From Bacillota bacterium (GTDB taxonomy: Bacteria; Bacillota; Limnochordia; Darwinibacteriales; DTU012): a stretch of DNA of 64,000 nucleotides. The stretch lies in the NCBI GenBank assembly GCA_012521185.1, contig JAAYMV010000014.1, forward strand, positions 3,082 through 67,081, written 5' to 3'. This document shows positions 18,584 to 52,794 of the stretch, in pieces (positions within the stretch are counted from its first letter, which is position 1; each line of letters opens with the position of its first letter). The notes under the pieces were generated by a model that was not told where the DNA came from, did not search any database, and was given only the letters and a program-made list of their open reading frames with translations. A program made the translations under genes and the position numbers.

Positions 18584-21268
18584 ATGAGTAGTAACCACAA
18601 AGTGTTAATACTTTTGTTGGCAGCGGTAGTTCTCTTGCTATTTGATGGAGTGGCAGTTGGGGTAAGTACTGATCAAGCTGAATTAGAGCAGTTAATTGAA
18701 GATTTAATAAGTAGTAATTTTCGAATCTCTACTTTAGCTAGCAATGCCTTAGTCGAATTAGGAGAAGAAGTCATTCCAGCAGTGGGAAAAGTAGTGCTGG
18801 AGAATTCTGCTTGGGATAATCGTTATAAGGCGATTACAGTTTTACGCCGAATCGGATCAGCCGAAGGAATTCCAATTTTATTGAATGCTTTAACTGATTC
18901 AGAGGATCGGGTACGTTCCCACGCTCGCACGTCGCTAGAGGAGATTGTGGCTCAAAGCGATCAAGTTAAGGTTATCGAATTAGTTGAACCTTATTTGGTA
19001 GCCAACAATTTAAACCTGCGAATAATAGCAGCAGACTTGCTGAGTGCTGCAGGATGGGAAAGTGAGGATTTTGCTAATGTTTTTATCAAATCCTTGTCAG
19101 CTAGTGATCCAATAATAAGGGCAATTGCTCTTGAACGCCTTGGGGAAATAGCTCATCAAGAAGCCGCGTATTTTGCTGAAGTTAGTCCCTTGGTATATGA
19201 TTCTCACATTGCAGTTCAAAAGGAAGCGGTTAGGACGCTGGTAAAACTTGGTTTTACTAGTGAGCAAATTGTGGAACTGGTTTTTGCTGGATTCATGAGT
19301 GGACAATTAGATAAAAATGTTGTGCCAGAGCTATTAGGTCAAATGGTTTTAGGCGAACTGAAAAATGCTAAGGCGTTAATTGATGTAATTACTAATACTC
19401 AGAACAGTAAAGAATGGCGTCAATTAGCCTTTGCAGCCTTAGATCTAGTGGTACCCGAAATGGAATATCATTTAGAACGAGGTTTAGTAGCCATTAAAGC
19501 AGCTGAAGGTGTCTATTTAAGCTGGCGATTGTTGGGTACAGAGCCTTATGATTTAGCTTTTAATGTTTATCGTGATGGACAAAAAATAAATGATCAGCCA
19601 ATAACCAGTAGTACTAATTATCAAGATCCACTTGGTACTTTAAATTCGAAGTATCAAGTTAAAGCAGTAATTGCTGACCAAGAAGTTTCTAGTTCTAAAG
19701 AAGTTACTGTTTGGGAAAAAGATTATCTGGCTATTCCTTTACAGAAACCTGAAGGTGGAATAACGCCAGATGGGGTTGCTTATAATTATCGGGCAAATGA
19801 TGCTAGTGCTGCTGATTTAGATGGTGATGGAGAATACGAGATCATTTTAAAATGGGATCCGTCAAATTCTAAAGATAACTCGCAAAGTGGATATACAGGT
19901 AATGTATATATCGACGCCTATAAATTAGATGGTACCTTTATGTGGCGCATAGATCTAGGGCGTAATATTCGAGCTGGTGCCCATTATACTCAATTTATGG
20001 TTTATGATTTAGATGGTGATGGGCGAGCTGAGCTTGTAATGAAAACAGCAGATGGAACCGTCGATGGGTTAGGTAATGTAATCGGTGATCCTAGTGCAGA
20101 TCACAGGAATAGCAGCGGCTATATTTTATCTGGACCAGAATATTTAACTGTTTTTGATGGTTTAACTGGAGCAGCCCTAGCTACAATTGACTATGAACCG
20201 CCAAGAGGTAATGTTTCTGCTTGGGGCGATAATTATGGTAATCGTGTTGATCGTTTCTTAGCGGGAATAGCTTATTTAGATGGTGTTAGACCAAGTGTGA
20301 TTATGGCTCGTGGTTATTATACTAGAACAGTAATAGTCGCCTACAATTGGCGTGATGGTAAATTAGAACATTTATGGACCTTTGATAGTGCTCATCCAGG
20401 ATATCAAGCATATGCTGGTCAAGGCAATCACCAATTATCAATTGCTGATGTAAATAATGATGGACGGGATGAAATAATCTATGGTGCGATGACTATAAAC
20501 CACGATGGAACTCCTTTATATAACACTGGTTTGGGTCATGGCGATGCTTTGCATGTGGGTGATTTCGATCCTGAGCGACCTGGTTTAGAGGTTTTTGGTG
20601 TGCATGAGAATTATCCGAACCCAGCAGGTGTTAACTTACGTGATGCTAGAACTGGCGAGGTAATTTGGGGAATTGCCACCGATTATGATGTGGGTCGGGG
20701 TTTGTCTGCTAATGTTGATCCAAACCATCCTGGAAATGAAGTTTGGGCTTCCCGGACACCGTTGTTTAACGCCAAAGGCGAGGTCATTAGTAATACAGCT
20801 CCTTCATCAATTAATCATGCTATTTGGTGGACAGGAGATTTATTGAGAGAATTGCTTGATCATGATCGTAGTCGTGGGAATGTAGGTAAAATTGACAAAT
20901 GGGACTGGGAAAACCAACGAACGGTTAATATTGCTACTTTCGAGGGAACTTCATCAAATAATGATACGAAAGGTAATCCATGCTTACAGGCGGATTTATT
21001 TGGTGATTGGCGTGAAGAAGTAGTTTTTAGAGCTGTTGACAGCAGTGAATTAAGAATATATTCAACAACTTATCCGACTGAACATAGGCTATATACCTTA
21101 ATGCACGACCGAATGTATCGAGTTGCTATTGCTTGGCAAAACGTAGCTTATAACCAGCCGCCACATCCAAGTTTCTATATTGGACCTGATATGGAGCGGC
21201 AAGAATTTAACATTGGTAATGCTTACACAGTGTTAGAGCAATATGGTGATGAATTAAGTAAGTGGTAG
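18584..21268 (+). CDS. Secreted rhamnogalacturonan lyase (PL11) with N-terminal HEAT-like module, paralogue 3
   Basis: Same architecture, 894 aa with a slightly shorter N-terminal module. RBS AAGGGAG. Confidence 0.8.
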   Translation: MSSNHKVLILLLAAVVLLLFDGVAVGVSTDQAELEQLIEDLISSNFRISTLASNALVELGEEVIPAVGKVVLENSAWDNRYKAITVLRRIGSAEGIPILLNALTDSEDRVRSHARTSLEEIVAQSDQVKVIELVEPYLVANNLNLRIIAADLLSAAGWESEDFANVFIKSLSASDPIIRAIALERLGEIAHQEAAYFAEVSPLVYDSHIAVQKEAVRTLVKLGFTSEQIVELVFAGFMSGQLDKNVVPELLGQMVLGELKNAKALIDVITNTQNSKEWRQLAFAALDLVVPEMEYHLERGLVAIKAAEGVYLSWRLLGTEPYDLAFNVYRDGQKINDQPITSSTNYQDPLGTLNSKYQVKAVIADQEVSSSKEVTVWEKDYLAIPLQKPEGGITPDGVAYNYRANDASAADLDGDGEYEIILKWDPSNSKDNSQSGYTGNVYIDAYKLDGTFMWRIDLGRNIRAGAHYTQFMVYDLDGDGRAELVMKTADGTVDGLGNVIGDPSADHRNSSGYILSGPEYLTVFDGLTGAALATIDYEPPRGNVSAWGDNYGNRVDRFLAGIAYLDGVRPSVIMARGYYTRTVIVAYNWRDGKLEHLWTFDSAHPGYQAYAGQGNHQLSIADVNNDGRDEIIYGAMTINHDGTPLYNTGLGHGDALHVGDFDPERPGLEVFGVHENYPNPAGVNLRDARTGEVIWGIATDYDVGRGLSANVDPNHPGNEVWASRTPLFNAKGEVISNTAPSSINHAIWWTGDLLRELLDHDRSRGNVGKIDKWDWENQRTVNIATFEGTSSNNDTKGNPCLQADLFGDWREEVVFRAVDSSELRIYSTTYPTEHRLYTLMHDRMYRVAIAWQNVAYNQPPHPSFYIGPDMERQEFNIGNAYTVLEQYGDELSKW

Positions 21269-21285: not shown

Positions 21286-21602
21286 TTCATCGAAACTAAA
21301 AGTTATCTCAAATTTCTATAAACTTATAGGAATCATTTTCTTGTGATAAGAATCTTTTTTTATTACCCCAACTCTGAATATACTGCAAAAAGCAAAAGCA
21401 GCAGACGAAGGAGAGGAAGATTTATACAATCGAGAAGGATTAAAAAATGTTCTTAAAAAGGAACTAGGCTCTGCTTATGAAGATGATCTAAAAAGGAATT
21501 TGCTGGATGTTCTTTCATGGTCGTGTAATTACTAAGTATAAAAAAATATTTGTGTGGTTTTTAGAAAAACTTAGGCCATTGGAAGTCCAATAGCCTAAGA
21601 AC

Positions 21603-23444
21603 TTAAAGCAGTATATATATCAATAATATCGCGAAAGCAATCAAGATCAAGTAGACATCAAAGTTAATGTTTGAAAAACTAATTTGACCAGATGCTCCCC
21701 AGCCGCTGGTATCTAGACGGCTACTAAAGTTTAGGATCCAGGTATAACAGGTTTTAGCCTGGGCTGAAAGATTAGCCATGGCTTGCTCATATTTTCTTTC
21801 GATTAAGCTTCCCAGATAACTAAGACCTTTAATAAAATTTCGTCCTAAATATTCAATACTTAACCAAGCAGGCGACTGATAGTGGAATAAATGGAATCTA
21901 AAGCCAATGGCACAGAAGCTGATTCCAGCCAGTAAAGTAATGATCATATTAAATATTTCTCTGCCTACCCAAAAGTTTGTCGCTAGCAAGTTATTAATAC
22001 TTGATACCCCTAACTCTGGTAAAGCAAGAATAATGGCCTTATTTAAGAATAGTTCAGGTTTGATGCCAATGAATGTAATCACTAAGGCGAAAATAAGTAG
22101 GGGAAAGATTAATAGTCCATTTTCTTTGCCATTAATTTCTAATTCTGGATCAGCTTTTCTTAAGAAAGCTAAGTAATATAATTTGGCAAATGATGCTGTA
22201 GTTCCAACTCCTACAAGATTAAATAGTCTTTCAATCCAAGGTAAGAGTCCTCCGCCAACTGCTGCTGCCTCAATTATCCCATGATGTAAAAGACTTTTAC
22301 TTACATATCCATTGAAACCAGGCGTACCAGTAATGCCAAAAACAGCAATTAACATTAGTAAGGCTGTAATTGGGAATTTACGCCAAAGACCGCCCATTTT
22401 ATATAGATTTTGTTGACCTGTCCGTAGATAAATAATACCTGTACCTAGGAAGAGTGCAGCTTTGAAGAAAGCGTGGTTAATTGTGTGATAAATAGCCCCT
22501 GCCAAGCCATAGCTACCTTCATTCCCTAAATAAATTGCTGTACCGATACCTATGATAATATAACCTACTTGACTGACGCTGTGATAGGCTAATAGGCGTT
22601 TAGCATTACTTTGCAAGAGAGCTAAACTAACTCCTAAAAGCATAGTAAGGATTCCTAAAATAATGACTATTAATCCTGTATTGGTAGGGAAACTGGCCAT
22701 TGGATTAGTTAGGTTAATAGTTTGAGCAGTTCTAATCATCCCATAAACTCCACACTTAATGATAATTCCTGACAGTAAAGCGCTACCTGGAGTGGGAGCT
22801 ACAGTATGAGCTTTTGGCAGCCAGATATGTAAGGGTACCATACCTGCTTTAATGCCAAAACCAATTAGTAGACAAGCGATTGCCCATGATAACAAGGTGC
22901 TGTTTGATAGCGACACTAGGTTAACTCCTATCTCTAAGGGTAAACCTAAGGAATTGATGAACACTAGTCCTATTGCTATGAATAAGCCTGCAGCAATCCC
23001 AAGAAATAAATAGAAATATCCAGCGGTGATGGCTTCTTGGTTTTGATTATGAATTACCCAAAAGAATGAGGTAACAGTCATTATTTCAAAAAAAGCTAAG
23101 AGAACAATCCAGTTATTTGCTAGAAAAATCCCTTGAACAGCACCCAAAGTTAATAAGAAGAATATGAAAAAGCTACGACTTCTTTCTTCAGCTTTCATAT
23201 ATTCAGGTAAATAAAAACTTACCAGCCACCAGGTAAAAGCACTAATTAAGCTAAAAATAGCAGCTGTCATATCGGATAATGGATAGCTGGCTCGAGTTTG
23301 AACAAAAAAGTATACACTGAGACCAAATACGATAGTAGTGGTTAACCATGTAAGCAGTGCAGTTGCATTTCTAGATTTTGTCCGTCTTAGCAAACCGGCA
23401 CCAATAAATGGAATGCCTACGCAAGCAATTGATGAAAATGTCAT
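21603..23444 (-). CDS. mrpA: Mrp/Mnh antiporter subunit A-like (NuoL-type proton-pumping subunit, lacking fused MrpB domain)
   Basis: 613 aa with ~16 TM segments and the NuoL/MrpA signature region (WLPKAHTVAPTPGSALLSGIIIKCGVYG). Confidence 0.7.
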   Translation of the reverse strand: MTFSSIACVGIPFIGAGLLRRTKSRNATALLTWLTTTIVFGLSVYFFVQTRASYPLSDMTAAIFSLISAFTWWLVSFYLPEYMKAEERSRSFFIFFLLTLGAVQGIFLANNWIVLLAFFEIMTVTSFFWVIHNQNQEAITAGYFYLFLGIAAGLFIAIGLVFINSLGLPLEIGVNLVSLSNSTLLSWAIACLLIGFGIKAGMVPLHIWLPKAHTVAPTPGSALLSGIIIKCGVYGMIRTAQTINLTNPMASFPTNTGLIVIILGILTMLLGVSLALLQSNAKRLLAYHSVSQVGYIIIGIGTAIYLGNEGSYGLAGAIYHTINHAFFKAALFLGTGIIYLRTGQQNLYKMGGLWRKFPITALLMLIAVFGITGTPGFNGYVSKSLLHHGIIEAAAVGGGLLPWIERLFNLVGVGTTASFAKLYYLAFLRKADPELEINGKENGLLIFPLLIFALVITFIGIKPELFLNKAIILALPELGVSSINNLLATNFWVGREIFNMIITLLAGISFCAIGFRFHLFHYQSPAWLSIEYLGRNFIKGLSYLGSLIERKYEQAMANLSAQAKTCYTWILNFSSRLDTSGWGASGQISFSNINFDVYLILIAFAILLIYILL

Positions 23445-23464
23445 TTTTCTCGGCCTCCTAATGA

Positions 23465-24910
23465 CTAAAAGAAATAATCGATTACAGAATTTACTAAAGG
23501 CATACAGAGCTGTGGCCAGATTCCTAAAGCTAAGGCTGTCATCACCAGCAGAATAGTTGGAACTAGCATTAAGAACCCATTGGTACCTAGTTTGATAGGT
23601 TGTAGATGATTAGTTGTGTTTTTGGTAAATGCAGACACTACAATAGGCAGATAGTAAAATGCGTTTAATAGTCCGCTAATCAATAATACGATGACTAAGG
23701 GCCAGTAACCACTAACAGTACTTCCTTGCATTAAGTAGTATTTACTCCAAAAACCATTCAGTGGTAGCATGCCAACCATACCTAAGCTAACTATACCAAA
23801 AGCAATAAAGACAAGCGGAAGACTAGGCCCTAAACCTTTCACGTCACTAACTTTTACTTTTCCAGTTTTTTCTGTAATTAGCCCAACAGAAAAGAACAGA
23901 GTAATTTTCAGGATTCCATGATTGATCATTTGAAATAAAGCACCGATTAAACCGATTGGATGTAAGGTAAAAGCGCCTAATAAAATATAAGATAATTGAC
24001 TAATTGTAGAATAAGCTAGTCGTTTCTTCAAGACATCTTGTTTCATCGCGATTAAGGAGCCTACTATAATTGTTATGGATACGATAACTAAGGCAATGGG
24101 ACCGACTTTTAACTCGCTCAATAGGCTATGCCCATAAACTGAATAGATTACTCTTAAGAGCCCGAATACGCCAGCATTTACAACTGCTACAGCATGGAGT
24201 AGTGCACTAATTGGTGTTGGTGCTACCATTGCTTGAGGCAGCCAGCCGTGTAATGGCATGACTGCTGCTTTTACCCCAAAGCCAATTAAAAATAATAAGA
24301 AAATCCAACCCATGCCTGGTTTGGCTTCAAGATTAGCAAGTAGAGGAGCATTACCAAAGGTTAAGTTTCCTTCAGTCCAAATCCAGACTGCTACTAGACC
24401 AGCTAAGATGAAGGCTGCACCAATTAGACTATAGATAATATAGCGGTTCCCAGCTTTAATTGCTTCTTGATCTCGATTGTAAATTACCAATGGATAGGTA
24501 GTAAATGTTAGTAATTCATAGCAAATATAAAGTACTAATAGATTCCCTGCTAAAGCAATGCCAAGAGTGACTCCAGCAGAGATTAAAAAGTAGGCAAAAT
24601 AACTTCGTTGCCGCGGTTTATCAGCCATGTAACCAAAAGAATAGATAGTTGCAAATACCCATAAAGTAGAGGATAGCAGGGCAAAGACCATGCCTAACGG
24701 GTCAGGCCTGAGACCTTCATCAATACCAACTAACACTGATTTATAGCCGAGGACATTTGGCAGCAGTCGCCAAGTAAACAAGGCTGTTAGTACGCTGGTA
24801 ACTAGTACAAGGGTATTTCTTCTGTTTTTACTAATTTTTCGCAAGTTAGCGATCAGCGTTCCACCGATTGTTCCTGTAAGAATTGGTAAAAGCACATTAA
24901 AAGTTGACAT
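23465..24910 (-). CDS. Mrp antiporter subunit D-like (NuoM/N-type), second copy
   Basis: 481 aa with the conserved WLPQAMVAPTPISALLHA region. RBS GGGGGG. Confidence 0.7.
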   Translation of the reverse strand: MSTFNVLLPILTGTIGGTLIANLRKISKNRRNTLVLVTSVLTALFTWRLLPNVLGYKSVLVGIDEGLRPDPLGMVFALLSSTLWVFATIYSFGYMADKPRQRSYFAYFLISAGVTLGIALAGNLLVLYICYELLTFTTYPLVIYNRDQEAIKAGNRYIIYSLIGAAFILAGLVAVWIWTEGNLTFGNAPLLANLEAKPGMGWIFLLFLIGFGVKAAVMPLHGWLPQAMVAPTPISALLHAVAVVNAGVFGLLRVIYSVYGHSLLSELKVGPIALVIVSITIIVGSLIAMKQDVLKKRLAYSTISQLSYILLGAFTLHPIGLIGALFQMINHGILKITLFFSVGLITEKTGKVKVSDVKGLGPSLPLVFIAFGIVSLGMVGMLPLNGFWSKYYLMQGSTVSGYWPLVIVLLISGLLNAFYYLPIVVSAFTKNTTNHLQPIKLGTNGFLMLVPTILLVMTALALGIWPQLCMPLVNSVIDYFF

Positions 24911-24942
24911 AATATAACCCCCCCGTTTAGCTTGATTACTGC

Positions 24943-26433
24943 TTATTGTCCTAACAGCATAGAAGCTGCTTGAGAGGCAAGCGTTAGTACTGGTCTAGGG
25001 AAAATGCCTAAAAGCAGGACAGTTCCAGCTAGTATTAAAATAGGTACTATCATGATAGTGTTTTCTTTGAGTTCGGCATAGTCTTGATTAGTAGTAAAGT
25101 ATGCCTGTTTAATAATTGGGAACAAATAAATTGCCGCCAAAATACTTCCAGCTAAAAGTACTAAAATCGCTAACCAGTTACCAGCTTCTAAGCTACCTAA
25201 TAATAGATTCCATTTTCCAATAAAACCCGAAAATAACGGTATGCCTGTCATTCCTAAGGAAACCACTGTAAAGGCTCCCATAGTTAATGGCATTTGTTTT
25301 CCAATTCCAGTTAAATCCTTAATTTGACTTTTACCGGTTTTTATTAAGATAAAGCCTGCTATTAAAAAGAGCGCCGTTTTAATCAAGGCATGACTAAAAA
25401 TATGGAAAAAAGCACCAGTCAATCCTGCTTGATTGTTTAAGCCCAGGCCTAAAAATATGTATCCTATTTGAGCAATAGTTGAAAAAGCAAATCTGCGTTT
25501 AAGCTCTGTTTGGGCGATGGCAAAGATTGAACCAGCGATGATCGATCCCATTCCTAGCAGTAATAGAATATCAGATATGTTTAAGCTGGCAACAATTAAC
25601 GGCCCAACTGCAATATAGAATACTTTTACTAGTCCTAAAACATATCCTTTTACTGATATAGCTGATAAAACAGCACTTGCTGGTGTAATGGCAGATGAGT
25701 GAGCATCAGGTAACCAGACATGTAAAGGAAAGACTGCCGATTTAATACCGAAGCCGACAATGAAAAAGGATAGACTAACCCAAAGAGCATACTGATAATT
25801 GCTCCAGGTCTGAGCGAGTTCGTGATTGACAAAGAGCATATTTAAGTTTCCAGTTAAGTTGTACAGAAAACCAATACCACCCAGAACGAAACATGAGCCT
25901 AAAGTAGCCAAGATTAGATATTTGAAAGTAGCTTCAGTGGACCGAGCATCGCCTTTCGCACCGACGATTGCACAACCACTAATGGTAGCAACTTCAATAA
26001 ATACATAGAGATTGAATAAGTCGTGACATAAAGCCATACCACATAATGCTGCTGTTAATAACATAAATAAAGTTAAAAACCAAGTTGCTCTTACCTTATT
26101 ACCTAACTCATCTGCTAAAGAAGGTAGAGCATAAACTAGAATCAATAAGTTTATTAAACCAATCATTATTAAAAATAGTGTACTTAAAGGATCAATCGTA
26201 ATTTCTAATCCCCAGGGAGCTTCCCAGCCAGCTAAAATATATCTAAAGCTGCCTTTAGCTAGAACTTGTGTTGCTAAAAATATACCGCCAAATAGGACGA
26301 AAAATTGTGTTGCTAAAGCTAAAAATCCAACAATACCATAACGCCGATATTGCATAAAGACAGGTAGTAGGTAGGCACTAAATAATGAAGCGATAACAAT
26401 TAAGATCGGCGCGTTTTCTTTAACTAGAGCTAC
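24943..26433 (-). CDS. mrpD: Mrp antiporter subunit D (NuoM/N-type)
   Basis: Conserved WLPDAHSSAITPASAVLSAISVKG region. The likely start is at 26433 (GAGGG + 8 nt) rather than 26490, leaving a 14-nt overlap with mrpC. Confidence 0.7.
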   Translation of the reverse strand, partial: VALVKENAPILIVIASLFSAYLLPVFMQYRRYGIVGFLALATQFFVLFGGIFLATQVLAKGSFRYILAGWEAPWGLEITIDPLSTLFLIMIGLINLLILVYALPSLADELGNKVRATWFLTLFMLLTAALCGMALCHDLFNLYVFIEVATISGCAIVGAKGDARSTEATFKYLILATLGSCFVLGGIGFLYNLTGNLNMLFVNHELAQTWSNYQYALWVSLSFFIVGFGIKSAVFPLHVWLPDAHSSAITPASAVLSAISVKGYVLGLVKVFYIAVGPLIVASLNISDILLLLGMGSIIAGSIFAIAQTELKRRFAFSTIAQIGYIFLGLGLNNQAGLTGAFFHIFSHALIKTALFLIAGFILIKTGKSQIKDLTGIGKQMPLTMGAFTVVSLGMTGIPLFSGFIGKWNLLLGSLEAGNWLAILVLLAGSILAAIYLFPIIKQAYFTTNQDYAELKENTIMIVPILILAGTVLLLGIFPRPVLTLASQAASMLLGQ

Positions 26434-26818
26434 CATTGTTTTTGCCCTCATTTCTAATTTCAAATATTTCATTAGCATCCATAGTTCCATAAAAACGGTA
26501 AAGTTTGATAATTAATGCTAAAGCAAATCCAGTTACACTAATACTAACAACTATACCAGTTAACATGAGCCCGGTTGGTAAAGGATTGATGTAAAGAGCT
26601 TCAGGCTGAGCAAGATCTACTATCGGAGGTACTCCTCCCCGGATGTTTCCTGTCGCCACGTAAAATAGGAAAATTGAACTTTCCATAATGTTAATACCGA
26701 GCAGTTTCTTAAGTAAATTTGAATTAGATAGCACTGTGTAACAACCAATTCCAAAAATGATTAAAGAACCAAGAAATGGATAATTGTTTAATAGTTTGGC
26801 TCCGATAGTTAACTCCAC
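26420..26818 (-). CDS. mrpC: Mrp antiporter subunit C (NuoK-like)
   Basis: 132 aa with three TM helices and a NuoK-like pattern (FGIGCYTVLSNSNLLKKLLGINIMESSIFLF). GTG start after GAGGAGG. Confidence 0.7.
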   Translation of the reverse strand: MELTIGAKLLNNYPFLGSLIIFGIGCYTVLSNSNLLKKLLGINIMESSIFLFYVATGNIRGGVPPIVDLAQPEALYINPLPTGLMLTGIVVSISVTGFALALIIKLYRFYGTMDANEIFEIRNEGKNNGSSS

Positions 26819-26821
26819 TGA

Positions 26822-27241
26822 TTATTCCTCCTCTGTTAGAGTAAAAAATAGCGTGACCATGGTACTGGCTACTTTTAACCCGACTCCAAAAGTAATCAAA
26901 AAGATTAATCCGCCAGAAAATAAGTTTCCTGGTTGGCCAACAGCTACTGCACCTTTATTTAAGAGAAAGCCAGCGCCTCGCAATACTCCAACTAAACCCA
27001 TTAATCCATACCAAAGGGTTCCGAAGCTTTCAATTAAGTTTGTAATCTTATGCGGGATCTTTTCTTGACCTTTTTCGGCACCAAAAACTAAACTGTAACA
27101 AATAAAACCTACAGCTACAATGATTCCTCCTGCAAAGCTGCCGCCGGGACTTAGGTGACCATGGAAGATGACATAAATGCCAAACATCTGTATAAATGGT
27201 AAAAGGATTAGAACAACTTTTTTCAATATGAAATCTAACAT
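26822..27241 (-). CDS. Mrp antiporter subunit B, C-terminal segment (MbhF-like)
   Basis: HGHLSPGGSFAGGIIVA motif characteristic of the MnhB C-terminal part. Confidence 0.6.
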   Translation of the reverse strand: MLDFILKKVVLILLPFIQMFGIYVIFHGHLSPGGSFAGGIIVAVGFICYSLVFGAEKGQEKIPHKITNLIESFGTLWYGLMGLVGVLRGAGFLLNKGAVAVGQPGNLFSGGLIFLITFGVGLKVASTMVTLFFTLTEEE

Positions 27242-27256
27242 ATGCTAAGCCCCTTT

Positions 27257-27547
27257 CTAGTGCTGTTCACCTTTCTTTAGCGTAATCAAGACAGCCATAA
27301 TAGATGTAAACAAAACAGTGGCCTCAATTAACGTGTCATAAGAACGGTAGTCGAGGATGATTGCTGTTACAATATTTAATACACCAGTTTCTTCTAAGGC
27401 GTTGTTTACATAGTGTTCATAAACATAGTTATGGGCAGGATTGTCAACATTTCCATAAGGTGGCAATTCTGCAACCGCTAACATAAAGACATATAACGCC
27501 ATAATAACTAAAATCATCGCTAAAATAGGTACTAATCGTTTAGCCAT
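27257..27547 (-). CDS. Mrp antiporter subunit B core segment (MbhE-like)
   Basis: NIVTAIILDYRSYDTLIEATVLF is the hallmark MnhB motif. RBS GAAAGGTGA. Confidence 0.65.
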   Translation of the reverse strand: MAKRLVPILAMILVIMALYVFMLAVAELPPYGNVDNPAHNYVYEHYVNNALEETGVLNIVTAIILDYRSYDTLIEATVLFTSIMAVLITLKKGEQH

Positions 27548-27548
27548 T

Positions 27549-27800
27549 TTACTTCACCTTTCTAGTTGTTCGCATAATTAAGGCGATCATTAACGTGGTG
27601 GTAGCCACTCCTGCCGCTGCCTCGGTGATTGCCAAATCTGGCGCATTCATTCGCAGCCAAATTAGAACCATAATTAAACCATAAACTCCGAATACAATTA
27701 CTACATAAAGTAAATCTTTCATAAAGTTAATGGCAATAGCAATAGTGATTAAGAAACAAATCAGTATAATGTTAATAATATCTGGTCCAGCAAAACTCAT
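27549..27800 (-). CDS. MrpB-related small membrane subunit (DUF4040/MbhD-like)
   Basis: 83 aa with three TM helices, starting at the internal Met (MSFAGPD) preceded by AGGGAGG. The longer ORF to 27869 would overlap mrpG by 65 nt. Confidence 0.5.
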   Translation of the reverse strand: MSFAGPDIINIILICFLITIAIAINFMKDLLYVVIVFGVYGLIMVLIWLRMNAPDLAITEAAAGVATTTLMIALIMRTTRKVK

Positions 27801-27804
27801 CAGA

Positions 27805-28128
27805 TTACCTCCCTTTAGCCTTTGGTTTAAAATATGGCCGATTACCGTGGAGCAAGGCCACTTTGGCAATGATGTGACTCATAGTAGGGTTAATTGTCCA
27901 AAAGATAGCACCAATTGCCAGCAATTTAATTCGTAATAAATGATCAGAGGCTAGCAAAATTAGTCCTAGCAAGGTTAAACCAAAGCCAAGAGTATCTCCC
28001 AGAGCAGCTGCGTGTAATTTATTATACGGATCAGGCATTCTAATTAGATTAAAAGAACCTATACTAAAGAAGATAAATGCTACCAAAAACAGAATAAAAA
28101 CTACGACATTTATAATCATCAATTTCAC
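27805..28128 (-). CDS. mrpG: Mrp antiporter subunit G
   Basis: NLIRMPDPYNKLHAAALGDTLG matches the MnhG signature (…RFPD.Y.RLHA…TLG). Confidence 0.7.
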   Translation of the reverse strand: MKLMIINVVVFILFLVAFIFFSIGSFNLIRMPDPYNKLHAAALGDTLGFGLTLLGLILLASDHLLRIKLLAIGAIFWTINPTMSHIIAKVALLHGNRPYFKPKAKGR

Positions 28129-28143
28129 TTCCTTAAAATTTAA

Positions 28144-28455
28144 TTAGTCTTTCGGTGTGGTCTGAGCATAAATATCAGCTAACTTCGCGACAGCTTTTTC
28201 ATGATTAACAGGTAGCAGGAATCTGAGTGTGGCGATTGTGCCCACAAGTCCACATAAGGTAAAAACGATAACTACATCAATAAAGGAAAAATTGTTTTGT
28301 AAAAACGCTAGTAATAAGATTATGGTACAAATTTTAGTTGTTAGTGAATTCACTACCACAATCCGGTCAGCAGCATAAGGCCCGCGAATTAAACGAGTGA
28401 CTTCTAACATCATTAAAACTAGAATTCCAACCAGCAAGAATCTTAAAGCGATCAT
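28144..28455 (-). CDS. mrpF: Mrp antiporter subunit F
   Basis: 103 aa with three TM helices and an RGP…DR motif near the N-terminus. Confidence 0.65.
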   Translation of the reverse strand: MIALRFLLVGILVLMMLEVTRLIRGPYAADRIVVVNSLTTKICTIILLLAFLQNNFSFIDVVIVFTLCGLVGTIATLRFLLPVNHEKAVAKLADIYAQTTPKD

Positions 28456-28952
28456 TATTTGTTCCCCCTGTATGTTTCAAGTTCTTGAATCATTTTGATT
28501 AGTTTACTATTATGTACACTATCGGCTAGGTCTTGGCTGATCGCGTGAACCACAAATTGGTCAGTATCGGGATTCACGTCGATGGTAACGGTTCCAGGAG
28601 TAATTGTGATTGAATTAGCTAATAAAATTCTACCCCATCTAGTCGCAAGATTTGGCTGAAATACTACAAATTTGGGATTGATCTTTGTTTTCCCAGCCAA
28701 TAAAATTTTAGCTACTTGAATATTAGAGCTAATGATTTCTCCTAACAATGCAAAGAGATAAACTAAAAATTTAAGATACAGTTTGGGATGGGGTAAATTT
28801 TCTGGCAGTAACTGGACAGATTCACCCCAAAACCAGGCTAAAAATACAGAAATAATTAATCCAGTTAATAAATGCTGAGCATTAAAAGCTTGGGTCAGAA
28901 CTAACCAAAAGCCAAATAAAAGGATAAAAAAGCTTAAGCGATTTTTATGCAT
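28455..28952 (-). CDS. mrpE: Mrp antiporter subunit E
   Basis: 165 aa. LANSITITPGTVTIDV matches the MnhE signature. First gene of the operon. Confidence 0.7.
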   Translation of the reverse strand: MHKNRLSFFILLFGFWLVLTQAFNAQHLLTGLIISVFLAWFWGESVQLLPENLPHPKLYLKFLVYLFALLGEIISSNIQVAKILLAGKTKINPKFVVFQPNLATRWGRILLANSITITPGTVTIDVNPDTDQFVVHAISQDLADSVHNSKLIKMIQELETYRGNK

Positions 28953-29255
28953 GTAAATCCTCCTAAAACAAAAAAATTCAATAAAAAAGTCACTTTGCTA
29001 AGTAAAAAGTTAGACAAATACTTGTAAACTTCTAGTTCGACATACTTTCACTATACGCCTTTTAGGTAATAACTTCAAAGTGAAATAATAGGTGATTTAT
29101 TTCAATTATACCATAAAACCGCCTTTTTATAGGGTTTTAATTGATTTTACGTATACCACGCTCTAATGTGTAAAAGAAAAAACTTGGAAAAAGCAGGAAA
29201 AGAAAAACAAATAGAGAATGATAACTATTAGCGGCATTGATAAGGAGGCGAATAA

Positions 29256-29765
29256 ATGCCTAATAGAACGGTTTTAATGCATGGTAAGGAAGTAAAATTA
29301 TACGGAAATGAATTGGAACTAAATACCAAAGCGCCTGACTTTACGTTAATCGATAATGATTTAAATAAAGTTAGCTTACAGGACTTTGGTAACCAAGTTA
29401 AGTTAATTAGTGTGGTACCTTCTTTGGATACAGGGATCTGTGATCAACAGACACGACGTTTTAATCAAGAAATAGTGAGTTATCCCAATGCAGTAGTAAT
29501 TACCGTTAGTGTTGATTTACCCTTCGCCCAGAAGCGGTGGTGCGGGGCATCTGGTTTGGATAATGTGATTACCTTATCCGATCATTTTGATGTTAATTTT
29601 GGCAAAGCTTATGGTGTTTTAATCGAAGATTTACGCTTGCTAAGTAGGGCGATTTTTGTATTAGATCAAGATAATACAGTTGTTTATCATGAATATTTAC
29701 CAGAAGTTGGTAAACACCCTGATTATGAAAAAGCGTTAGCTGCATTAAAAAGCTTAACCTCATAG
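29256..29765 (+). CDS. tpx: Thiol peroxidase (atypical 2-Cys peroxiredoxin)
   Basis: 169 aa. The N-terminus and peroxidatic Cys context ([10 protein letters not shown], here [12 protein letters not shown]) are characteristic of Tpx. Confidence 0.85.
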
Positions 29766-29907
29766 CAGGACGCTGGAAATAAATGTAGAACAATCAATCA
29801 TGGGAGAAAAGGGCTAAGTAGTAAGACTGGCAGTGCTGGTTTTGGCAGCTTTAGCTGCTAAGCTAGCATTAAGCTAATATATTAAACATTTTATGAGGAG
29901 GATGTCA

Positions 29908-30501
29908 ATGAAAAGTTTAAAAGGAACAAGAACAGCTGAAAATTTACTGAAAGCATTTGCTGGCGAATCTCAAGCAAGCAATCGCTACATGATCTATGCT
30001 TCTGTTGCCGATAAAGAAGGGTACAAGCAAATTCGCAATATTTTCTTAGAAACAGCAGATCATGAAAGAGAGCATGCTAAAAGATTTTGGAAATTCTTAG
30101 TTCAAGGTTTCGATGGAGAAATGCCAACAAACATTATGATTAATGCTGGCTATCCGGTTGCTCAAGGTAGCACTTTGGAAAACCTAAAAGCTGCAGCTGC
30201 AGGTGAAAAGGAAGAATTTACTGACTTATATCCATCCTTTGCAGATGTTGCTGAAGAAGAAGGATTCCCAGAAGTAGCAGCAGCTTTCCGCAACATTTGT
30301 GTATCTGAGCAAATGCATGAAGCTCGTTATCTAAAATTAGCTGATAACGTAGAAAAAGATTTAGTATTCAAGAAAAACGAAAGCATTGTTTGGAAATGCT
30401 CTAACTGTGGATATTTACATGAAGGCGATGCTGCTCCAGAAGCATGCCCTGCCTGTGTACATCCAAAAGCATACTTTGAAGTATTTAAAGAAACATACTA
30501 G
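29908..30501 (+). CDS. rbr: Rubrerythrin (ferritin-like diiron domain + C-terminal rubredoxin-like CxxC…CxxC)
   Basis: ExxH diiron motifs (ETADHEREHAK, EQMHEARY) and C-terminal CSNCGY…CPACVHPK. Likely start MKSLKGT (GAGGAGG + 6 nt). Confidence 0.85.
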   Translation: MKSLKGTRTAENLLKAFAGESQASNRYMIYASVADKEGYKQIRNIFLETADHEREHAKRFWKFLVQGFDGEMPTNIMINAGYPVAQGSTLENLKAAAAGEKEEFTDLYPSFADVAEEEGFPEVAAAFRNICVSEQMHEARYLKLADNVEKDLVFKKNESIVWKCSNCGYLHEGDAAPEACPACVHPKAYFEVFKETY

Positions 30502-31872: not shown

Positions 31873-32017
31873 CTCAATAGATATTCCTTTTATCTTAATT
31901 CAGCGTATTAACTGAAATTTCCTTTTTATGTTATAATAATACAAGGGAAATATTTACGAAACTAGAAATTAACATAAAACTCTAGTGCATTTGTCAGTAG
32001 TAATGGAGGTTAGTTTG

Positions 32018-35000
32018 ATGGCTCGACTAGTTCATATTGGCATTGATGTAGGTTCAACAACTGTAAAAATTGTTGTTATAGATCAAGACTTCCAGTTGTT
32101 GTACAGTAAGTATCAGCGACACTACTCGGAAATTCGAGAAGCAGTAGCTGATTTATTACAAGAAGCCTATCAAGAATTTTCGGACACTAAGATTACTGTG
32201 ATGGTTACTGGTTCCGGCGGTATTGCTATTGCTGAGCACCTTGGTGTGGAATTTATTCAGGAAGTAATTGCAGGCGCAAAAGCGATTGAAACCTTTCATC
32301 CTGAAACAGATGTGGCTATTGAGTTAGGTGGCGAAGATGCGAAAATCATCTATTTTAGAGGTGGAATTGATCAGCGAATGAACGGGATTTGTGCTGGCGG
32401 AACAGGGTCATTTATTGACCAGATGGCGACCTTGTTAAAAACAGATGCCGCTGGCTTAAATGAGCTAGCCAAAAATTATAAAACAATTTATCCGATTGCA
32501 GCCCGCTGTGGAGTTTTTGCCAAAACAGATTTACAGCCATTGATTAATGAAGGTGTTGCTAAAGAAGATTTGGCAGCCTCAGTTTTTCAAGCAGTAGTTA
32601 TTCAAACTATTAGTGGATTAGCTTGTGGTCGGCCAATTAGAGGTAATGTGGCTTTCCTCGGTGGCCCCTTATCATTTTTACCTGAACTAAGACAGCGATT
32701 TGTTGAGACTTTAAACCTAACCGATGAGCAGGTTATAGTTCCTGAACATCCACAGTTATACATTGCTTTGGGTGCAGCAATTGCTTCTAAAAATACTCAA
32801 CCACTTGCTTTTTCTGATCTAGCGAGTGCTATAACTACATTAAGAAATAGTACTATTCAAGAAACAGATAGATTAGCACCGTTATTTAAAAATGAACAAG
32901 AGTTAGCTGAGTTTAGACAGCGCCATGGCCGTTATGCAGTAGAAAGAGGCAATCTTGCTGATTTAGAGGGTAATTGTTTTGTTGGCATTGATGCTGGTTC
33001 TACAACAACGAAAGTAGCGGTAATCGATGAGGATGGAAAATTGCTGTACACTTATTACAGTAGTAATCAGGGCAGCCCGCTCCAAACAACGATTAATGCC
33101 TTAAAGGAATTCTATTACTTAATGCCAAAAACTGGTCGTATAGCAAATTCGGTAGTGACTGGTTATGGTGAAGGCTTATTAAAAGCGGGATTAAAAGTTG
33201 ATATTGGTGAAATTGAAACAATTGCCCACTATAAAGCTGCTGAATTTTTCTGCCCAGGAGTAGATTTTGTTCTAGATATTGGCGGTCAAGATATGAAAAG
33301 TTTGCGGATTCGTGATGGTGTGATTGAAAGTATTTCATTAAATGAGGCTTGTTCTTCTGGTTGCGGTTCATTTTTAGAGACCTTTGCTCATTCCTTAGGT
33401 CTCGATATTAAAGAGTTTGCTGCAGAGGCTTTATTGGCAGAAAAGCCTGTAGATCTTGGGTCGCGCTGTACAGTGTTTATGAACTCTCGCGTAAAACAAT
33501 CTCAAAAAGAAGGAGCAACTGTTGGTGATATTTCTGCTGGATTATCCTACTCGGTTATAAAAAATGCTTTGTTTAAGGTTATTAAATTGCGTGATAATAG
33601 TGAGCTTGGTGGGAAAATTGTTGTTCAAGGCGGTACTTTTCATAATGATGCCGTATTAAGAAGCTTTGAACTCTTAGCGGAACGGGAAGTTATTCGTCCC
33701 GATATTTCTGGCATTATGGGAGCGTTTGGTGCAGCCTTAATCGCAAGGGAGCGCTACCAAGAAGGATATCAATCTACTTTATTGAGTGCTAAAGAAATAG
33801 ATAACTTGCAAGTTAAAACCAGAATTACTCGCTGTCGTCTTTGTTCTAACAATTGTATGTTAACTATTAACCAGTTTGGTTCAGGCAATCGTTATATTTC
33901 AGGTAATCGCTGCAGTAAGGGAGCAGGGGAAGAAGACCGCAGTGAAAAATTACCTAATCTTTATCAGTATAAGTATGAACGGCTTTTTCAATATCAGCCC
34001 TTGCCAGAGAAATTAGCTCCTCGCGGTAGGATAGGTCTTCCACGTGTCTTAAACATGTATGAAAATTATCCTTTCTGGTTTACTTTCTTTACCGAGCTTG
34101 GTTTTTCTGTAGTACTATCAGAGAGGTCTTCGAAAGCTGTTTATGAAAAGGGGATTGAGACAATTCCTTCTGAGTCTGTTTGTTATCCGGCAAAAATGGT
34201 TCATGGCCATATTGTAGACTTAATTGATAAAGGCGTTGATGTAATCTTTTATCCATGCTTGACTCATGAACGACAGGAGCAAAAATCAGCTGAAAACCAC
34301 TTTAACTGTCCGATAGTTACTTCTTATCCGGAAGTAATTAAGAATAATGTTGAGATACTGAGAGAGAAGAATATTAAATTCCTTTATCCCTTCTTGCCCT
34401 ACGATCATAAAGGGCGGTTAATTAAGCGGCTTCACGAAGAATTAGGTGAGTTGTTGGGTTTATCAAAGAGTGAAATTCGGCAGGCGATAAACAGGGCTTG
34501 GCAAGAACAAGATGAGTTTAGAGCAGATATTAAAGAACAAGGGGAAATTACGCTACAGTTAATTAAAGAAAAGGGATTAACTGGTATTGTTTTAGCTGGC
34601 CGTCCTTATCATATAGACCCAGCTATTAACCATGGTATTCCTGAATTAATCAACAGTCTAGGTATGGCTGTATTAACCGAAGATTCAATTTCCCATTTAG
34701 ATTCTGCAGAAAGACCATTGCGGGTAGTAGATCAATGGGCTTATCATTCACGGTTATATGATGCAGCCACTTATGTTTCTAAATCTGACAATTTAGAGTT
34801 AGTACAATTAAACTCCTTCGGTTGTGGATTAGATGCCATTACCACTGATCAAGTGGAGGAACTTTTAGCTGCAAAAGGTAAAATCTATACTTGTTTAAAA
34901 ATTGACGAAGGTGATAATCTAGGTGCTGCTCGTATTCGTTTGCGCTCTCTAAAGGCTGCAATCATTGAAAGAAGAGAAAAAGGCTATCAACCAGTGCTTG

Positions 35001-36262
35001 AAAATAACATAGTGAAACGTAAGCTGTTCACCAAAGAAATGCGTCGACAGCATACTATTTTAGCGCCACAAATGTCTCCAATACATTTTGACTTGTTAGA
35101 AAAAGCTTTTAGGCTCTCTGGCTATAACATAGTAGTATGTCCTTCAACAGATCGGGAAGCTATCGATATTGGATTAAAATATGTTAATAATGATGCTTGC
35201 TATCCGGCAATTATTGTCATGGGGCAGTTAATTGAGGCCTTACAATCAAATAAATATGATCCAGATAATACGTCTGTATTGGTTACCCAGACTGGGGGAG
35301 GATGTCGAGCTACAAACTACATTGGATTTTTGAAAAAAGCACTAGTGGATGCTGGTTTTCCCCAAGTCCCTGTCTTATCCCTAAATCCTAAGGGGATGGA
35401 TGATAACCCAGGCTTTAAAATTACTCTTCCACTGCTCCATCGAGCTTTAATGGCAGTTATTTATGGGGATTTGCTAATGCGCCTGTTGTACCGTGTCAGA
35501 CCATACGAAAAAATTAAAGGCTCAGCTAATATACTTTATGAAAAATGGTCGGAAATTTGTAAGAGGACATTAGAAAAACCAGGAATCATAACTTTTAAAA
35601 ATACCATTAAACAAATTGTCAACGAGTTCGATAATTTCGAGATTATAAAAAAAACCAAGCCCAGAGTGGGATTGGTAGGCGAGATTTTAGTGAAATACCA
35701 TCCGACTGCCAACAATAATGTTGTTGAGATCGTAGAATCTGAGGGAGCTGAAGCAGTGGTACCGGATATGACGGATTTCTTCTTATACTCTGCTTTAGGG
35801 CTTGATTTTAGATACCGTTATTTATCTGGTACGAAGATTGAACAAATTCTATCGCGCACTGCGGTTCAAATCATTGAATTGTATCGTAAAACACTGCGTC
35901 AAGCATTAGAGACTAGTAAACGCTTTTCACCGCCAAAATCTATCTATGAAATCGCAGAAAATGCATCAAGGATCATTTCTTTGGGTCATCAAACTGGCGA
36001 AGGTTGGTATTTGACAGGTGAGATGGTAGAGTTAATTGAAAATGGCGTGGAGAATATTGTGTGTATGCAGCCCTTTGCTTGTTTGCCGAATCATGTAACT
36101 GGCAAAGGGATGCTGCGAGAATTAAAGCGAGTTTATCCGAATAGTAATGTAGTAGCAATTGACTATGATCCTGGTGCCAGTGAAATTAACCAGTTAAACC
36201 GGATTAAATTGATGTTAGCAGCGGCTTTCAATAATTGTGAACTACAAGCACAAGCTCAATAG
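32018..36262 (+). CDS. Giant fusion protein: two BadF/BadG/BcrA/BcrD (HgdC-type) activase ATPase domains plus 2-hydroxyacyl-CoA-dehydratase-like domains
   Basis: Two copies of the actin-fold ATPase start motif ([15 protein letters not shown] and [15 protein letters not shown]). Cys-rich linker (CRLCSNNC…C). Long C-terminal region resembling HgdB/BcrB-like dehydratase subunits. Likely start at 32018 (GGAGG + 8 nt). Confidence 0.7.
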
Positions 36263-52386: not shown

Positions 52387-52794
52387 ATGCGTAAAAATTT
52401 AATAAGTAAGTGGTCTGCTGGCGAACAATTAGGACAATTATTTATGATTGAAGGTACAGGTGGAAATCCGCTAATTGTCACAGAGCTAGGCGATGATCCA
52501 TTAAATAAACAAAGAATACAGTTTTGGTGGAATGAAGGCGATGATGTTATCAAGGGAATTGCAGAAGCCTTAATTACAAATTCTGGAGAACTAACTGAGG
52601 AACTAATGATTGGTTTAGTACTTTCTCAAAGAGGCAGTATATTTTACAGCTGGGTATCAGATATTGTTGAAGGAGATGTAGTGTTAGTTATTTCGCAAGC
52701 TGATCAAAAGATAATGATTGAGCAAGAAAATGTAGTAGGTTTTTTCAGATGGTTAAGGAAGTGCTTCCAACTTATGGAAAAGTTGGTAATGTAA
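52387..52794 (+). CDS. Hypothetical protein (135 aa)
   Basis: Strong RBS GGAGGG. No recognisable family. Confidence 0.35.
   Translation: MRKNLISKWSAGEQLGQLFMIEGTGGNPLIVTELGDDPLNKQRIQFWWNEGDDVIKGIAEALITNSGELTEELMIGLVLSQRGSIFYSWVSDIVEGDVVLVISQADQKIMIEQENVVGFFRWLRKCFQLMEKLVM

Follow-up and report, generated by a model that had tools for sequence, protein, structure and literature searches.

A probable stand-alone Group 3 Mrp cation/proton antiporter with three antiporter-like subunits, encoded by ten consecutive genes of a Bacillota bacterium

The DNA analysed here (the window, 64 kb in its full length) carries on its minus strand, from 28952 to 21603, ten consecutive genes in the order mrpE, mrpF, mrpG, MbhD-like, MbhE-like, mrpB, mrpC, D1, D2 and D3. 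All are open reading frames at the coordinates given below and all ten products pass a Pfam gathering score, in keeping with the original prediction of a ten-gene operon that begins with E, F and G, in which the strand was left unstated.

29105..29113, minus strand: candidate sigma-A promoter with an extended -10 element (TGgTATAAT), read from the sequence, ~150 nt 5' of mrpE
28455..28952, minus strand: mrpE (MbhA-like), 165 aa; PF01899 MNHE, 118 bits, E 3e-34
28144..28455, minus strand: mrpF (MbhB-like), 103 aa; PF04066 (MrpF_PhaF), 45 bits
27805..28119, minus strand: mrpG (MbhC-like), 104 aa; PF03334 (PhaG_MnhG), 69.5 bits
27549..27800, minus strand: MbhD-like gene (DUF4040), 83 aa; PF13244, 62 bits
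27257..27547, minus strand: MbhE-like gene, 96 aa; PF20501, 33 bits
26822..27241, minus strand: mrpB proper (MbhF-like), 139 aa; PF04039 MnhB, 90 bits; NF009162, 99 bits
26420..26818, minus strand: mrpC (NuoK/MbhG/MbsG-like), 132 aa; PF00420 (Oxidored_q2), 69 bits
24943..26436, minus strand: D1, MrpD/MbhH/MbsH-type, 497 aa; PF00361, 196 bits
23465..24910, minus strand: D2, 481 aa; PF00361, 183 bits; PF00662 (Proton_antipo_N), 25 bits
21603..23444, minus strand: D3, 613 aa, MrpA-N/NuoL architecture; Proton_antipo_M; AlphaFold2 model
21570..21599, minus strand: intrinsic terminator, a 13-bp stem with 6 G-C pairs followed by TTTTT

The gaps or overlaps between the genes are short, a purine-rich sequence resembling a Shine-Dalgarno site lies a few bases 5' of the start in most of them, and the neighbours of the operon are convergent or divergent to it. 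Independent gene calls on near-identical contigs reproduce the sizes of 83, 96, 139, 132, 497, 481 and 613 aa. The start of mrpG was placed at ATG 28119, from RBS spacing and the genes as called on contigs L003-L005, which are near-identical (its longest ORF begins at GTG 28128), and the longest ORF for D1, from 26490, has 515 aa. The site at 29105..29113, which may serve as a sigma-A promoter, sits in a 303-bp region common to mrpE and a divergent redoxin gene; a consensus scan gave weaker sites at 29172-29144 and 29078-29050, with a site count not above shuffle expectation. A strong terminator hairpin, beginning 4 nt past the D3 stop codon, closes the operon.

As judged from the domain assignments, all Mrp homology units are encoded in this operon, and MrpA is delivered by three genes: D3 supplies the N-terminal part (TM1-16 plus lateral helix), and the C-terminal domain comes from the MbhD-like and MbhE-like genes. 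The MbhD-like protein aligns to residues ~605-695 of full-length MrpA models, the first half of that domain, and in PDB alignments its Glu60 corresponds to MbhD E69 and MrpA E706 (APDLAITEAA, against APDVAIAEAA in MbhD). The MbhE-like protein is the second half, with a DTLIE motif that matches MrpA D792/E796 and scores of 52 bits to 6cfw_E, 39 bits to 6u8y_E and 20-28 bits to MrpA chains. Published work equates MbhD plus MbhE with MrpA TM17-21 (PMC7419157, PMC8415708). The three small ORFs had been read as a MrpB split into three, but only the third is MrpB; likewise, the statement that canonical operons have MrpB fused to MrpA is true of Group 2 only, MrpB being a separate gene in Group 1 operons (PMC5703873).

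The small subunits find their best solved-structure matches among MBH/MBS chains and not among bacterial Mrp chains; for MrpC, which has a TM2 Glu (NIMESS) as in MbsG, the scores fall from 67.6 bits for 6u8y_G to 60.7 for 6cfw_G and 49.5 for MrpC. MrpG scores 64.1 bits against TIGR01300, above the cutoff of 63.1, and the TPG motif of MrpE does not vary among 5 orthologs. For the proposed Na+ coupling site, the small subunits retain the Glu and Asp residues with the exception of MrpF D35: alignments to 6cfw_B, 6z16_F and 6u8y_B place Asp30 at D29f and Asn36 at D35f, and an ortholog alignment has Asn or Ser at the latter position in all five orthologs. Asp35 has been termed "invariably conserved" and placed on the proposed Na+ path (PMC7419157), so that its replacement in five orthologs might mean a different cation path or specificity.

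There are three antiporter-like (Proton_antipo_M) subunits in place of the usual two, and the residues of the proton channel (Glu in TM5, Lys in TM7, Lys or His in TM8, Lys in TM12) are retained in each; key residues of the operon are conserved in 4-5 orthologous operons too. D1, of the TM8 Lys type, matches MbsH best in the PDB (6u8y_H, 217 bits), followed by MbhH (178) and MrpD (153). D2 has no C-terminal extension and carries a TM8 histidine of the NuoL/MrpA type (PTPISALLHAVAVV), as identified from PDB alignments to NuoL 8e9g_L and MrpA 6z16_A; the histidine is kept in 5/5 intact operons, and a crude NJ tree does not group D2 with the NuoL/MrpA clade (3% support). D3, also of the TM8 Lys type (K230), has the N-terminal architecture of MrpA and no B-like domain, just as had been claimed for the 613-aa subunit. 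Its AlphaFold2 model (mean pLDDT 85.3) has TM15 at 494-516, a 48-residue lateral helix at 530-577 and TM16 at 593-612; the top Foldseek match is MrpA 6z16_A (TMq 0.80), and phmmer aligns residues 58-608 to MrpA 104-661. At 79 aa, and 76-83 aa in orthologous proteins, the D3 linker between TM15 and TM16 is about as long as that of E. coli NuoL (80 aa); in two MrpA proteins of the canonical two-channel kind it has 45-46 aa.

The arrangement is that of a recognised type, the Group 3 Mrp, and is not unusual. Layouts annotated as "MrpEFGBBBCD, MrpDD" in the NPL-UPA2 Unc8 MAG (PMC6305446; its two additional D genes stand apart from the other eight) and as "Mnh/MrpEFGBCD1D2D3" in Verruconatronum alginivorum (PMC13274419) are alike as annotated: they start with E-F-G, continue with B-like genes and end with C followed by three MrpD-like genes. 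The reports in question are annotation lines and do not include residue-level, structural or functional analysis. Together with a Natranaerobius thermophilus cluster that has three mrpB genes, cited in a review (PMC5703873), these layouts belong to stand-alone systems whose habitats are anaerobic and/or alkaline. The Pyrococcus furiosus Mrp (PF1147-53, mrpEFGBB'CD), also of the Group 3 class, is identical in order across its first eight functional units and likewise has MBH-like small subunits and no redox module (PMC8415708), but it has one antiporter-like subunit, lacks a MrpA-N equivalent and has the MbhD and MbhE units fused as one MrpB. D2 and D3 are thus extra in the window operon, and D3 provides the lateral helix. 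Canonical Group 1 complexes (Anoxybacillus 6z16, Bacillus pseudofirmus 7qru, S. aureus Mnh1) share all seven homology units, the MrpA-N fold of D3 and the essential Glu, Lys and Asp residues apart from MrpF Asp35, which is Asn here; they differ in their ABCDEFG order, a single MrpA protein of ~800 aa, two antiporter-like subunits, the shorter linker, and MrpC His37/His40 where the window MrpC has Glu. Complex I (NuoL/M/N/K/J) likewise has three antiporter-like subunits with a NuoK homolog, a linker of the same length in its distal subunit, and one His-type and two Lys-type subunits at TM8, but in the window operon the lateral helix sits on another subunit than the His-type one (D2), and NuoH, NuoA and a peripheral arm are lacking.

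The best solved-structure relatives of each subunit tested are Mrp, MBH and MBS chains, and we consider it probable that the operon encodes a stand-alone monovalent cation/proton antiporter of Group 3 Mrp (CPA3 family) that works without a redox input module; Na+(K+)/H+ antiport driven by the proton motive force is its most likely activity. Our literature search found no activity reports for the ten-gene, three-channel type. A cyanobacterial Group 3 Mrp gives Na+/H+ antiport in E. coli (PMC5703873), and a Pyrococcus mrpEFGBB'CD deletion strain shows Na+-coupled pH homeostasis (PMC8415708). The subunits would lie in a row, E/G/F/B followed by MbhD plus MbhE, C, D1, D2 and the distal D3, whose unusually long amphipathic helix would span back over D2 and D1 much as that of NuoL does over NuoM and NuoN. 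The proton motive force would drive protons in through D1, D2 and D3, and a chain of charged residues might couple this entry to the exit of Na+ (or K+) through the C/MbhD/F/G module; stoichiometry, like direction and subunit order, is here a matter of prediction. More speculatively, the additional channel might raise the H+/Na+ ratio, which would be of use to a fermentative anaerobe whose membrane potential is small, or where the surroundings are neutral to alkaline and rich in cations.

The same stand-alone complex might operate in the opposite physiological direction, an inward Na+ gradient expelling protons when fermentation acidifies the cytoplasm, as proposed for the Pyrococcus Mrp, or might exchange another ion (K+ or Ca2+/H+); we regard this as unlikely. 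The Pyrococcus deletion strain is acid-sensitive and not salt-sensitive (PMC8415708), and a Thermomicrobium Mrp performs Ca2+/H+ antiport (PMC5703873); the Asn at MrpF D35, the Glu of MrpC in place of two Bacillus MrpC histidines and the acid-producing pectin fermentation of the host point the same way. However, where three channels lead protons inward for each cation site, expelling protons against the proton motive force would be energetically harder, the proposed Na+ site has all its other residues conserved, and the sequence itself fixes neither direction nor ion.

Somewhat less probable still is a redox-driven ion pump of the MBS/MBX or Hyf kind for which the operon would supply the membrane arm, with a peripheral arm (NuoB/C/D/I-like) and a NuoH/MbhM-like connector encoded elsewhere in the genome. 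The order E-F-G-MbhD-MbhE-B-C-D does mirror the MBH/MBS membrane arm, in line with the Mbh/Mbx comparison originally made: the order MbsA-B-C-D-E-G-H-H' of the Pyrococcus MBS/MBH arm (6u8y, 6cfw) is shared, the small subunits resemble MBH/MBS chains, D1 and MrpC are closest to MbsH and MbsG, and D3 is most identical among the references to MbsH' (34.6%; both TM8 Lys-type). The top NCBIfam match of D3 is HyfB, a 613-position model, NF006419 ("NADH dehydrogenase subunit M"), is matched over almost its full length, and the host, with rubrerythrin and a BcrAD-type activase, is an anaerobe whose metabolism is of the ferredoxin type. Compared with the MBS/MBH arm, the operon is without MbsM/J/K/L/N homologs and has one more antiporter-like subunit (D2). 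Against the redox reading, the HyfB score of 257.7 bits is far under the model cutoff of 667 bits, a terminator directly follows D3, and the lateral helix is carried, in Mrp fashion, by an antiporter-like subunit and not by an MbhI-like linker. No NuoB/C/D/H/I-like, MbhM, MbhI or hydrogenase genes occur across the 64-kb window. In four other Bacillota lineages (L006/L007, L008, L009, L010) the same ten genes recur in the same order between unrelated flanks, and no NuoB/C/D/H/I or hydrogenase genes lie next to them there. The original observation that such subunits are absent is supported. To our knowledge, the membrane and peripheral subunits of MBH, MBS, Hyf, FHL and Nuo share one operon, which we also count against a separately encoded arm.

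That the locus is decaying or mis-assembled, its small ORFs being frameshift fragments of a once-canonical mrpA/mrpB, as the spread of MrpA-derived domains over three ORFs and the deletions in one strain variant and one relative might suggest, is refuted by the conservation of the ORF boundaries in four further lineages (83-84, 93-100 and 139-142 aa, in proteins about 45-50% identical), and the ATG starts of all the small ORFs, the RBS-like stretch upstream of most, the separate Pfam families (MbhD, MbhE, MnhB), the same division into chains D, E and F of the MBH structure 6cfw and the conserved key residues leave this reading next to no credibility. The operon appears to be dispensable in some relatives: in one near-identical strain the promoter is missing together with the 5' end of the mrpE gene, and one related MAG retains D2-D3 only.

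As a Group 3 Mrp with a layout annotated in other genomes the operon is an ordinary finding, but the NuoL-length TM15-TM16 linker of D3, the NuoL/MrpA-type TM8 histidine of D2 and the Asn at the "invariant" Asp35 of MrpF may be new details. The salt-adapted lifestyle that had been proposed cannot be deduced from the moderately acidic window proteins (median pI 5.26, n=38, a figure without a reference baseline). The host is an uncultured anaerobic pectin-degrading Bacillota bacterium, and the only hint of habitat is the isolate label of a relative, AS23ysBPME_205, which resembles those of what we take to be a biogas-reactor MAG series.

Ten consecutive ORFs, each scoring above the gathering threshold of one Pfam family, occupy positions 21603-28952 of the window on the minus strand, and the sizes and coordinates given for them in the original prediction are correct. 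In order of transcription, with the Pfam family matched by each, they are:

Gene 1, minus strand: MNHE, 165 aa
Gene 2, 28144-28455, minus strand: MrpF_PhaF, 103 aa
Gene 3, minus strand, from an ATG at 28119: PhaG_MnhG, 104 aa
Gene 4, minus strand, from an ATG at 27800: MbhD/DUF4040, 83 aa
Gene 5, minus strand: MbhE, 96 aa
Gene 6, minus strand: MnhB, 139 aa
Gene 7, minus strand: Oxidored_q2 (MrpC/NuoK), 132 aa
Gene 8, minus strand, from 26436: Proton_antipo_M, antiporter-like subunit D1, 497 aa
Gene 9, minus strand: Proton_antipo_M, antiporter-like subunit D2, 481 aa
Gene 10, minus strand: Proton_antipo_M, antiporter-like subunit D3, 613 aa

The spacers or overlaps between these genes are short, and most of the genes carry a purine-rich, Shine-Dalgarno-like stretch a few bases 5' of their start. 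A hairpin begins 4 nt past the D3 stop; its stem is 13 bp long and a T-run comes after it. The operon is bordered on its 5' side by a divergent redoxin-rubrerythrin pair and on its 3' side by three convergent rhamnogalacturonan lyase genes. A scan of the window for promoter consensus sequences returned 25 sites versus 27.2 expected from shuffled sequence, i.e., no excess, and the mrp promoter is a candidate picked out by eye. Just downstream of its candidate extended -10 element, at 29078-29107, lies an inverted repeat of 11 nt (AAGTGAAATAA / TTATTTCAATT, spacer 8 nt) that might act as an operator. Neither an Rfam nor a tRNA scan of the window gave a match.

All of the Mrp units (the N-terminal part and C-terminal domain of A, and B, C, D, E, F and G) are encoded in this one cluster, in the order E-F-G-(A C-terminal domain, two genes)-B-C-D-D-D; an MrpA of ~800 aa is absent. 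The NCBIfam matches of the operon proteins are to Mrp subunit models, mostly with scores under the equivalog cutoffs, which points to a divergent subfamily. The three small ORFs that follow mrpG had been read as an MrpB split in three, an assignment that has to be revised: the 83-aa and 96-aa proteins align to residues ~605-695 and ~705-790, respectively, of full-length MrpA in the NCBIfam models. Since the MrpA C-terminal domain corresponds to MbhD plus MbhE, and MrpB to MbhF (PMC7419157; Table 2 of PMC8415708), MrpB is the 139-aa ORF only, and MrpA is here spread over three genes. The related statement that canonical operons fuse MrpB to MrpA is accurate for Group 2 and not otherwise (PMC5703873). 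Irregular gene order, the lack of a full-length mrpA and the presence of mrpD-type gene(s), sometimes in multiple copies, characterize Group 3 Mrp systems, and under the Swartz/Ito classification the operon belongs to that group (PMC5703873, PMC8415708).

This ten-gene set, with its order unchanged, was also found in a Bacillota MAG, a Limnochordia contig, a Syntrophomonadaceae MAG and another MAG, whose D3 proteins are ~45-50% identical to the D3 of the window. This conservation of ORF boundaries in four other lineages rules out the concern that the subunit ORFs are frameshift artefacts.

Counterparts of the acidic residues E706 and D792/E796 of the MrpA C-terminal domain are kept in the MbhD-like and MbhE-like proteins: Glu60 of the former aligns to MbhD E69, a residue given as homologous to the essential E706 of MrpA, and the DTLIE motif of the latter aligns to DTLFE of MrpA, which holds D792/E796 in A. 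flavithermus numbering. MrpC has a Glu in TM2, as does MbsG. The MrpE TPG and MrpG NPT motifs are identical in five orthologs, in a comparison made among orthologs alone; prolines P114 of MrpE and P86/P81 of MrpG are essential. In MrpF, Asp30 (the essential D29) is invariant. At the position of A. flavithermus D35 the window protein has Asn36, each of the five orthologous operons has Asn or Ser, and the MBH, MBS, Dietzia and Bacillus chains have Asp. Asp35 has been called invariably conserved and lies on the proposed Na+ path, and the D-to-N change is reported to be mild in B. subtilis (PMC7419157). We treat the loss of Asp35 as a deviation of the subfamily and not as a reason to exclude the operon from Mrp.

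The proton-channel residues (TM5 Glu, TM7 Lys, TM8 Lys or His, TM12 Lys) are kept in D1, D2 and D3 as well as in their orthologs at four to five loci, and K230 of D3 is unchanged in 55 homologs. D1 is by its scores (MbsH 217, MbhH 178 and MrpD 153 bits) the ortholog-like counterpart of these three proteins. D2 has no C-terminal extension, and its TM8 is of the His type seen in NuoL and MrpA (PTPISALLHAVAVV aligned with PTPVSALIHAATMV and PTPVSAYLHSATMV, respectively). The TM8 of D3 is of the Lys type, as in MrpD, MbhH, MbsH' and HycC. The structure of D3, predicted with good confidence (AF2, pLDDT 85.3), continues past the 14-helix core with TM15 at 494-516, an unbroken helix of 48 residues at 530-577 and TM16 at 593-612, so that the amphipathic lateral helix found between TM15 and TM16 of MrpA-N-type subunits is present. 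MrpA chains give the closest folds, with TMq values of 0.80 and 0.76, and phmmer aligned residues 58-608 of D3 to 104-661 of the Anoxybacillus MrpA; at the level of architecture, the earlier description of this subunit as a short MrpA is borne out.

In a crude neighbor-joining (NJ) tree of 430 columns, which took E. coli NuoL/M/N, HycC and HyfB/D/F as references along with PDB-derived fragments of MbhH, MbsH, MbsH', MrpA and MrpD, the D1, D2 and D3 proteins were each monophyletic across five or six lineages with 100% support. By this tree they are three ancient paralog families rather than products of recent duplication. The deep nodes are poorly supported, at 60% for D1 plus D2, a mere 50% for D3 with HycC and HyfB, and 3% for D2 with NuoL/MrpA. 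Because of this last value we keep D2 out of a NuoL/MrpA clade, despite its TM8 histidine and a match to Proton_antipo_N. Neither do we call D3 an ortholog of HyfB, because its score with the HyfB model NF005086 (257.7 bits) is far under the cutoff of 667 and the genomic context is wrong, with no hyf/hyc neighbours.

The linker between TM15 and TM16 that carries the lateral helix differs in length among the proteins compared.

Lengths of the TM15-TM16 linker, measured from hydropathy
D3 of the window: 79 aa
Four D3 orthologs: 76-83 aa
E. coli NuoL: 80 aa
Canonical MrpA, Priestia megaterium: 45 aa
Canonical MrpA, S. aureus Mnh1: 46 aa
HycC: 64 aa
HyfB: 106 aa

In known complexes the lateral helix just spans the antiporter-like subunits present: MBH has one of these, MBS and Mrp have two each, and complex I has three (PMC8165549). 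The D3 linker, ~34 residues longer than that of MrpA, would fit an arrangement of three antiporter-like subunits in a row with D3 at the distal end.

The product of the operon is, with good probability, a PMF-driven, electrogenic Na+(K+)/H+ antiporter, of which we infer the direction, ion and stoichiometry. Protons would enter via D1, D2 and D3, and electrostatic coupling along the central axis would lead to the extrusion of cations at the MrpC/MbhD/MrpF/MrpG module. A higher H+/cation ratio is the probable effect of the third channel. A more tentative and somewhat doubtful extension is that the ten-gene type represents a stand-alone Mrp built like the membrane arm of complex I, in which a row of three subunits is braced by the NuoL-length helix of D3 and the D2-D3 pair is a separable add-on to a Pyrococcus-type core of eight genes. 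If this three-channel arrangement were true, the H+/cation ratio would exceed that of a two-channel Mrp, the operon would encode a living analogue of the step between such an Mrp and the three-channel complex I, and the change of MrpF D35 to N would be a hint that the path of cation entry is altered.

We consider a partner module encoded elsewhere in the genome very improbable. A Pfam scan that covered ORFs of 120 aa or more lying outside the operon, over the whole 64-kb window, detected no NuoB/C/D/H/I, hydrogenase or Fpo-type proteins, and neither NuoB/C/D/I-like catalytic subunits nor a NuoH-like MbhM occur in the operon flanks of the near-identical contigs or of the other loci with the ten-gene order. 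The flanks of the latter are wholly unlike those of the window, and redox-module genes were not found there. The original prediction that hydrogenase or oxidoreductase subunits are missing is upheld by these searches, which also turned up no peripheral-arm genes just beyond the operon. A respiratory complex of the MBH/MBS/MBX type is rejected, as the operon has no NuoB/C/D/I-like or MbhM-type genes. A membrane arm of complex I (Nuo) is likewise rejected, with NuoK-like, NuoL/M/N-like and MbhD/E units alone and neither NuoH nor NuoA.

Two variants of the operon were noted. A contig 99.9% identical to the window elsewhere (L003; ENA ERZ2648073 NODE_25) has a clean 1137-bp deletion corresponding to window positions 28784-29920, with microhomology of at most 4 nt at the junction; it removes the 5' third of mrpE (its first ~56 codons), all of the intergenic/promoter region, the redoxin gene and the initial codons of rubrerythrin. 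Two other near-identical contigs carry this region intact. The second variant, from the Bacillota MAG JAAYRO010000188 (L001, 8341-11812), retains D2-like and D3-like genes alone, the first eight mrp genes being absent. It is syntenic with L006, one of the loci with the complete gene order, through ThrRS, Peptidase_C69 and ABC transporter genes, at 65-70% DNA identity. In its D2 both the WLP proline and the TM8 histidine (LLLEVAVV) have been lost, and the D2-D3 pair could be a module able to separate from the rest or else what remains of a decaying operon. Taken with the Unc8 MAG, in which 'MrpDD' is listed apart, the two variants suggest an eight-plus-two modular organization and, further, that the mrp system is accessory and non-essential.

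Layouts identical to that of the window have been annotated in a serpentinite-spring MAG ('MrpEFGBBBCD, MrpDD') and in a soda-lake Verrucomicrobium ('Mnh/MrpEFGBCD1D2D3'); the stand-alone Mrp of Pyrococcus is mrpEFGBB'CD (PMC8415708) and, among anaerobes, Natranaerobius thermophilus has three mrpB genes (PMC5703873). The window operon is a further example of the known Group 3 Mrp, a group that in this form looks common among uncultured anaerobic Bacillota, within the sampling here. The residue-level and helix-length observations are modest and, as far as we have checked, are not found in the literature searched, in which we also found no structure or transport study of any stand-alone Mrp that has three subunits of the antiporter-like kind. 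A three-channel Mrp, if characterized, could test channel number and lateral-helix length against H+/Na+ stoichiometry, a question that bears on ion coupling in Mrp, MBH/MBS and complex I, and with its ten genes the locus is compact enough to serve as the construct.

At least 24 metagenome contigs encode a protein identical to D3, and the 90% cluster of D3 includes NLM24750.1 from a 'Firmicutes bacterium' MAG. Annotations of the relatives name Natronincola, Clostridiaceae, Limnochordia and Syntrophomonadaceae. A scan of genome contigs with D3 alone found two loci, one of them (in Solibacter) of different architecture, and says little about taxonomic breadth. The suggestion of a salt-adapted lifestyle, and with it a halophile marker, is not substantiated: the 38 window ORFs outside the operon have a median pI of 5.26 and a median acidic/basic ratio of 1.33, values that lack a baseline for comparison and are moderately acidic but non-diagnostic.

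Markers of anaerobic life in the window are rubrerythrin, a BcrAD-type activase and a flavodiiron-like protein. A broad set of genes for pectin/arabinan use at 37681-62636 encodes a pectate-lyase-like protein, GH43, a second RGL11-like FG-GAP protein, L-arabinose isomerase, an FGGY kinase, a class II aldolase, pectinesterase and transaldolase, from which the host would be a pectin-degrading anaerobe. Two ORFs, at 36293-37669 (minus strand, 458 aa) and 52387-52794 (plus strand, 135 aa), matched no Pfam family at E <= 0.001. The ORF at 31985-36262 (plus strand) encodes a protein of 1425 aa in which two BcrAD_BadFG ATPase domains are fused to DUF2229 (CoA-enzyme activase type), and marks radical or dehydratase-type anaerobic metabolism. 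The lyase genes next to the operon (13015-21268, plus strand) are three tandem family-11 rhamnogalacturonan lyase paralogs of 921, 921 and 894 aa, preceded by a gene for a GGDEF-EAL protein. Each paralog has a HEAT-repeat region at its N-terminus, which to our knowledge is unusual for a polysaccharide lyase.
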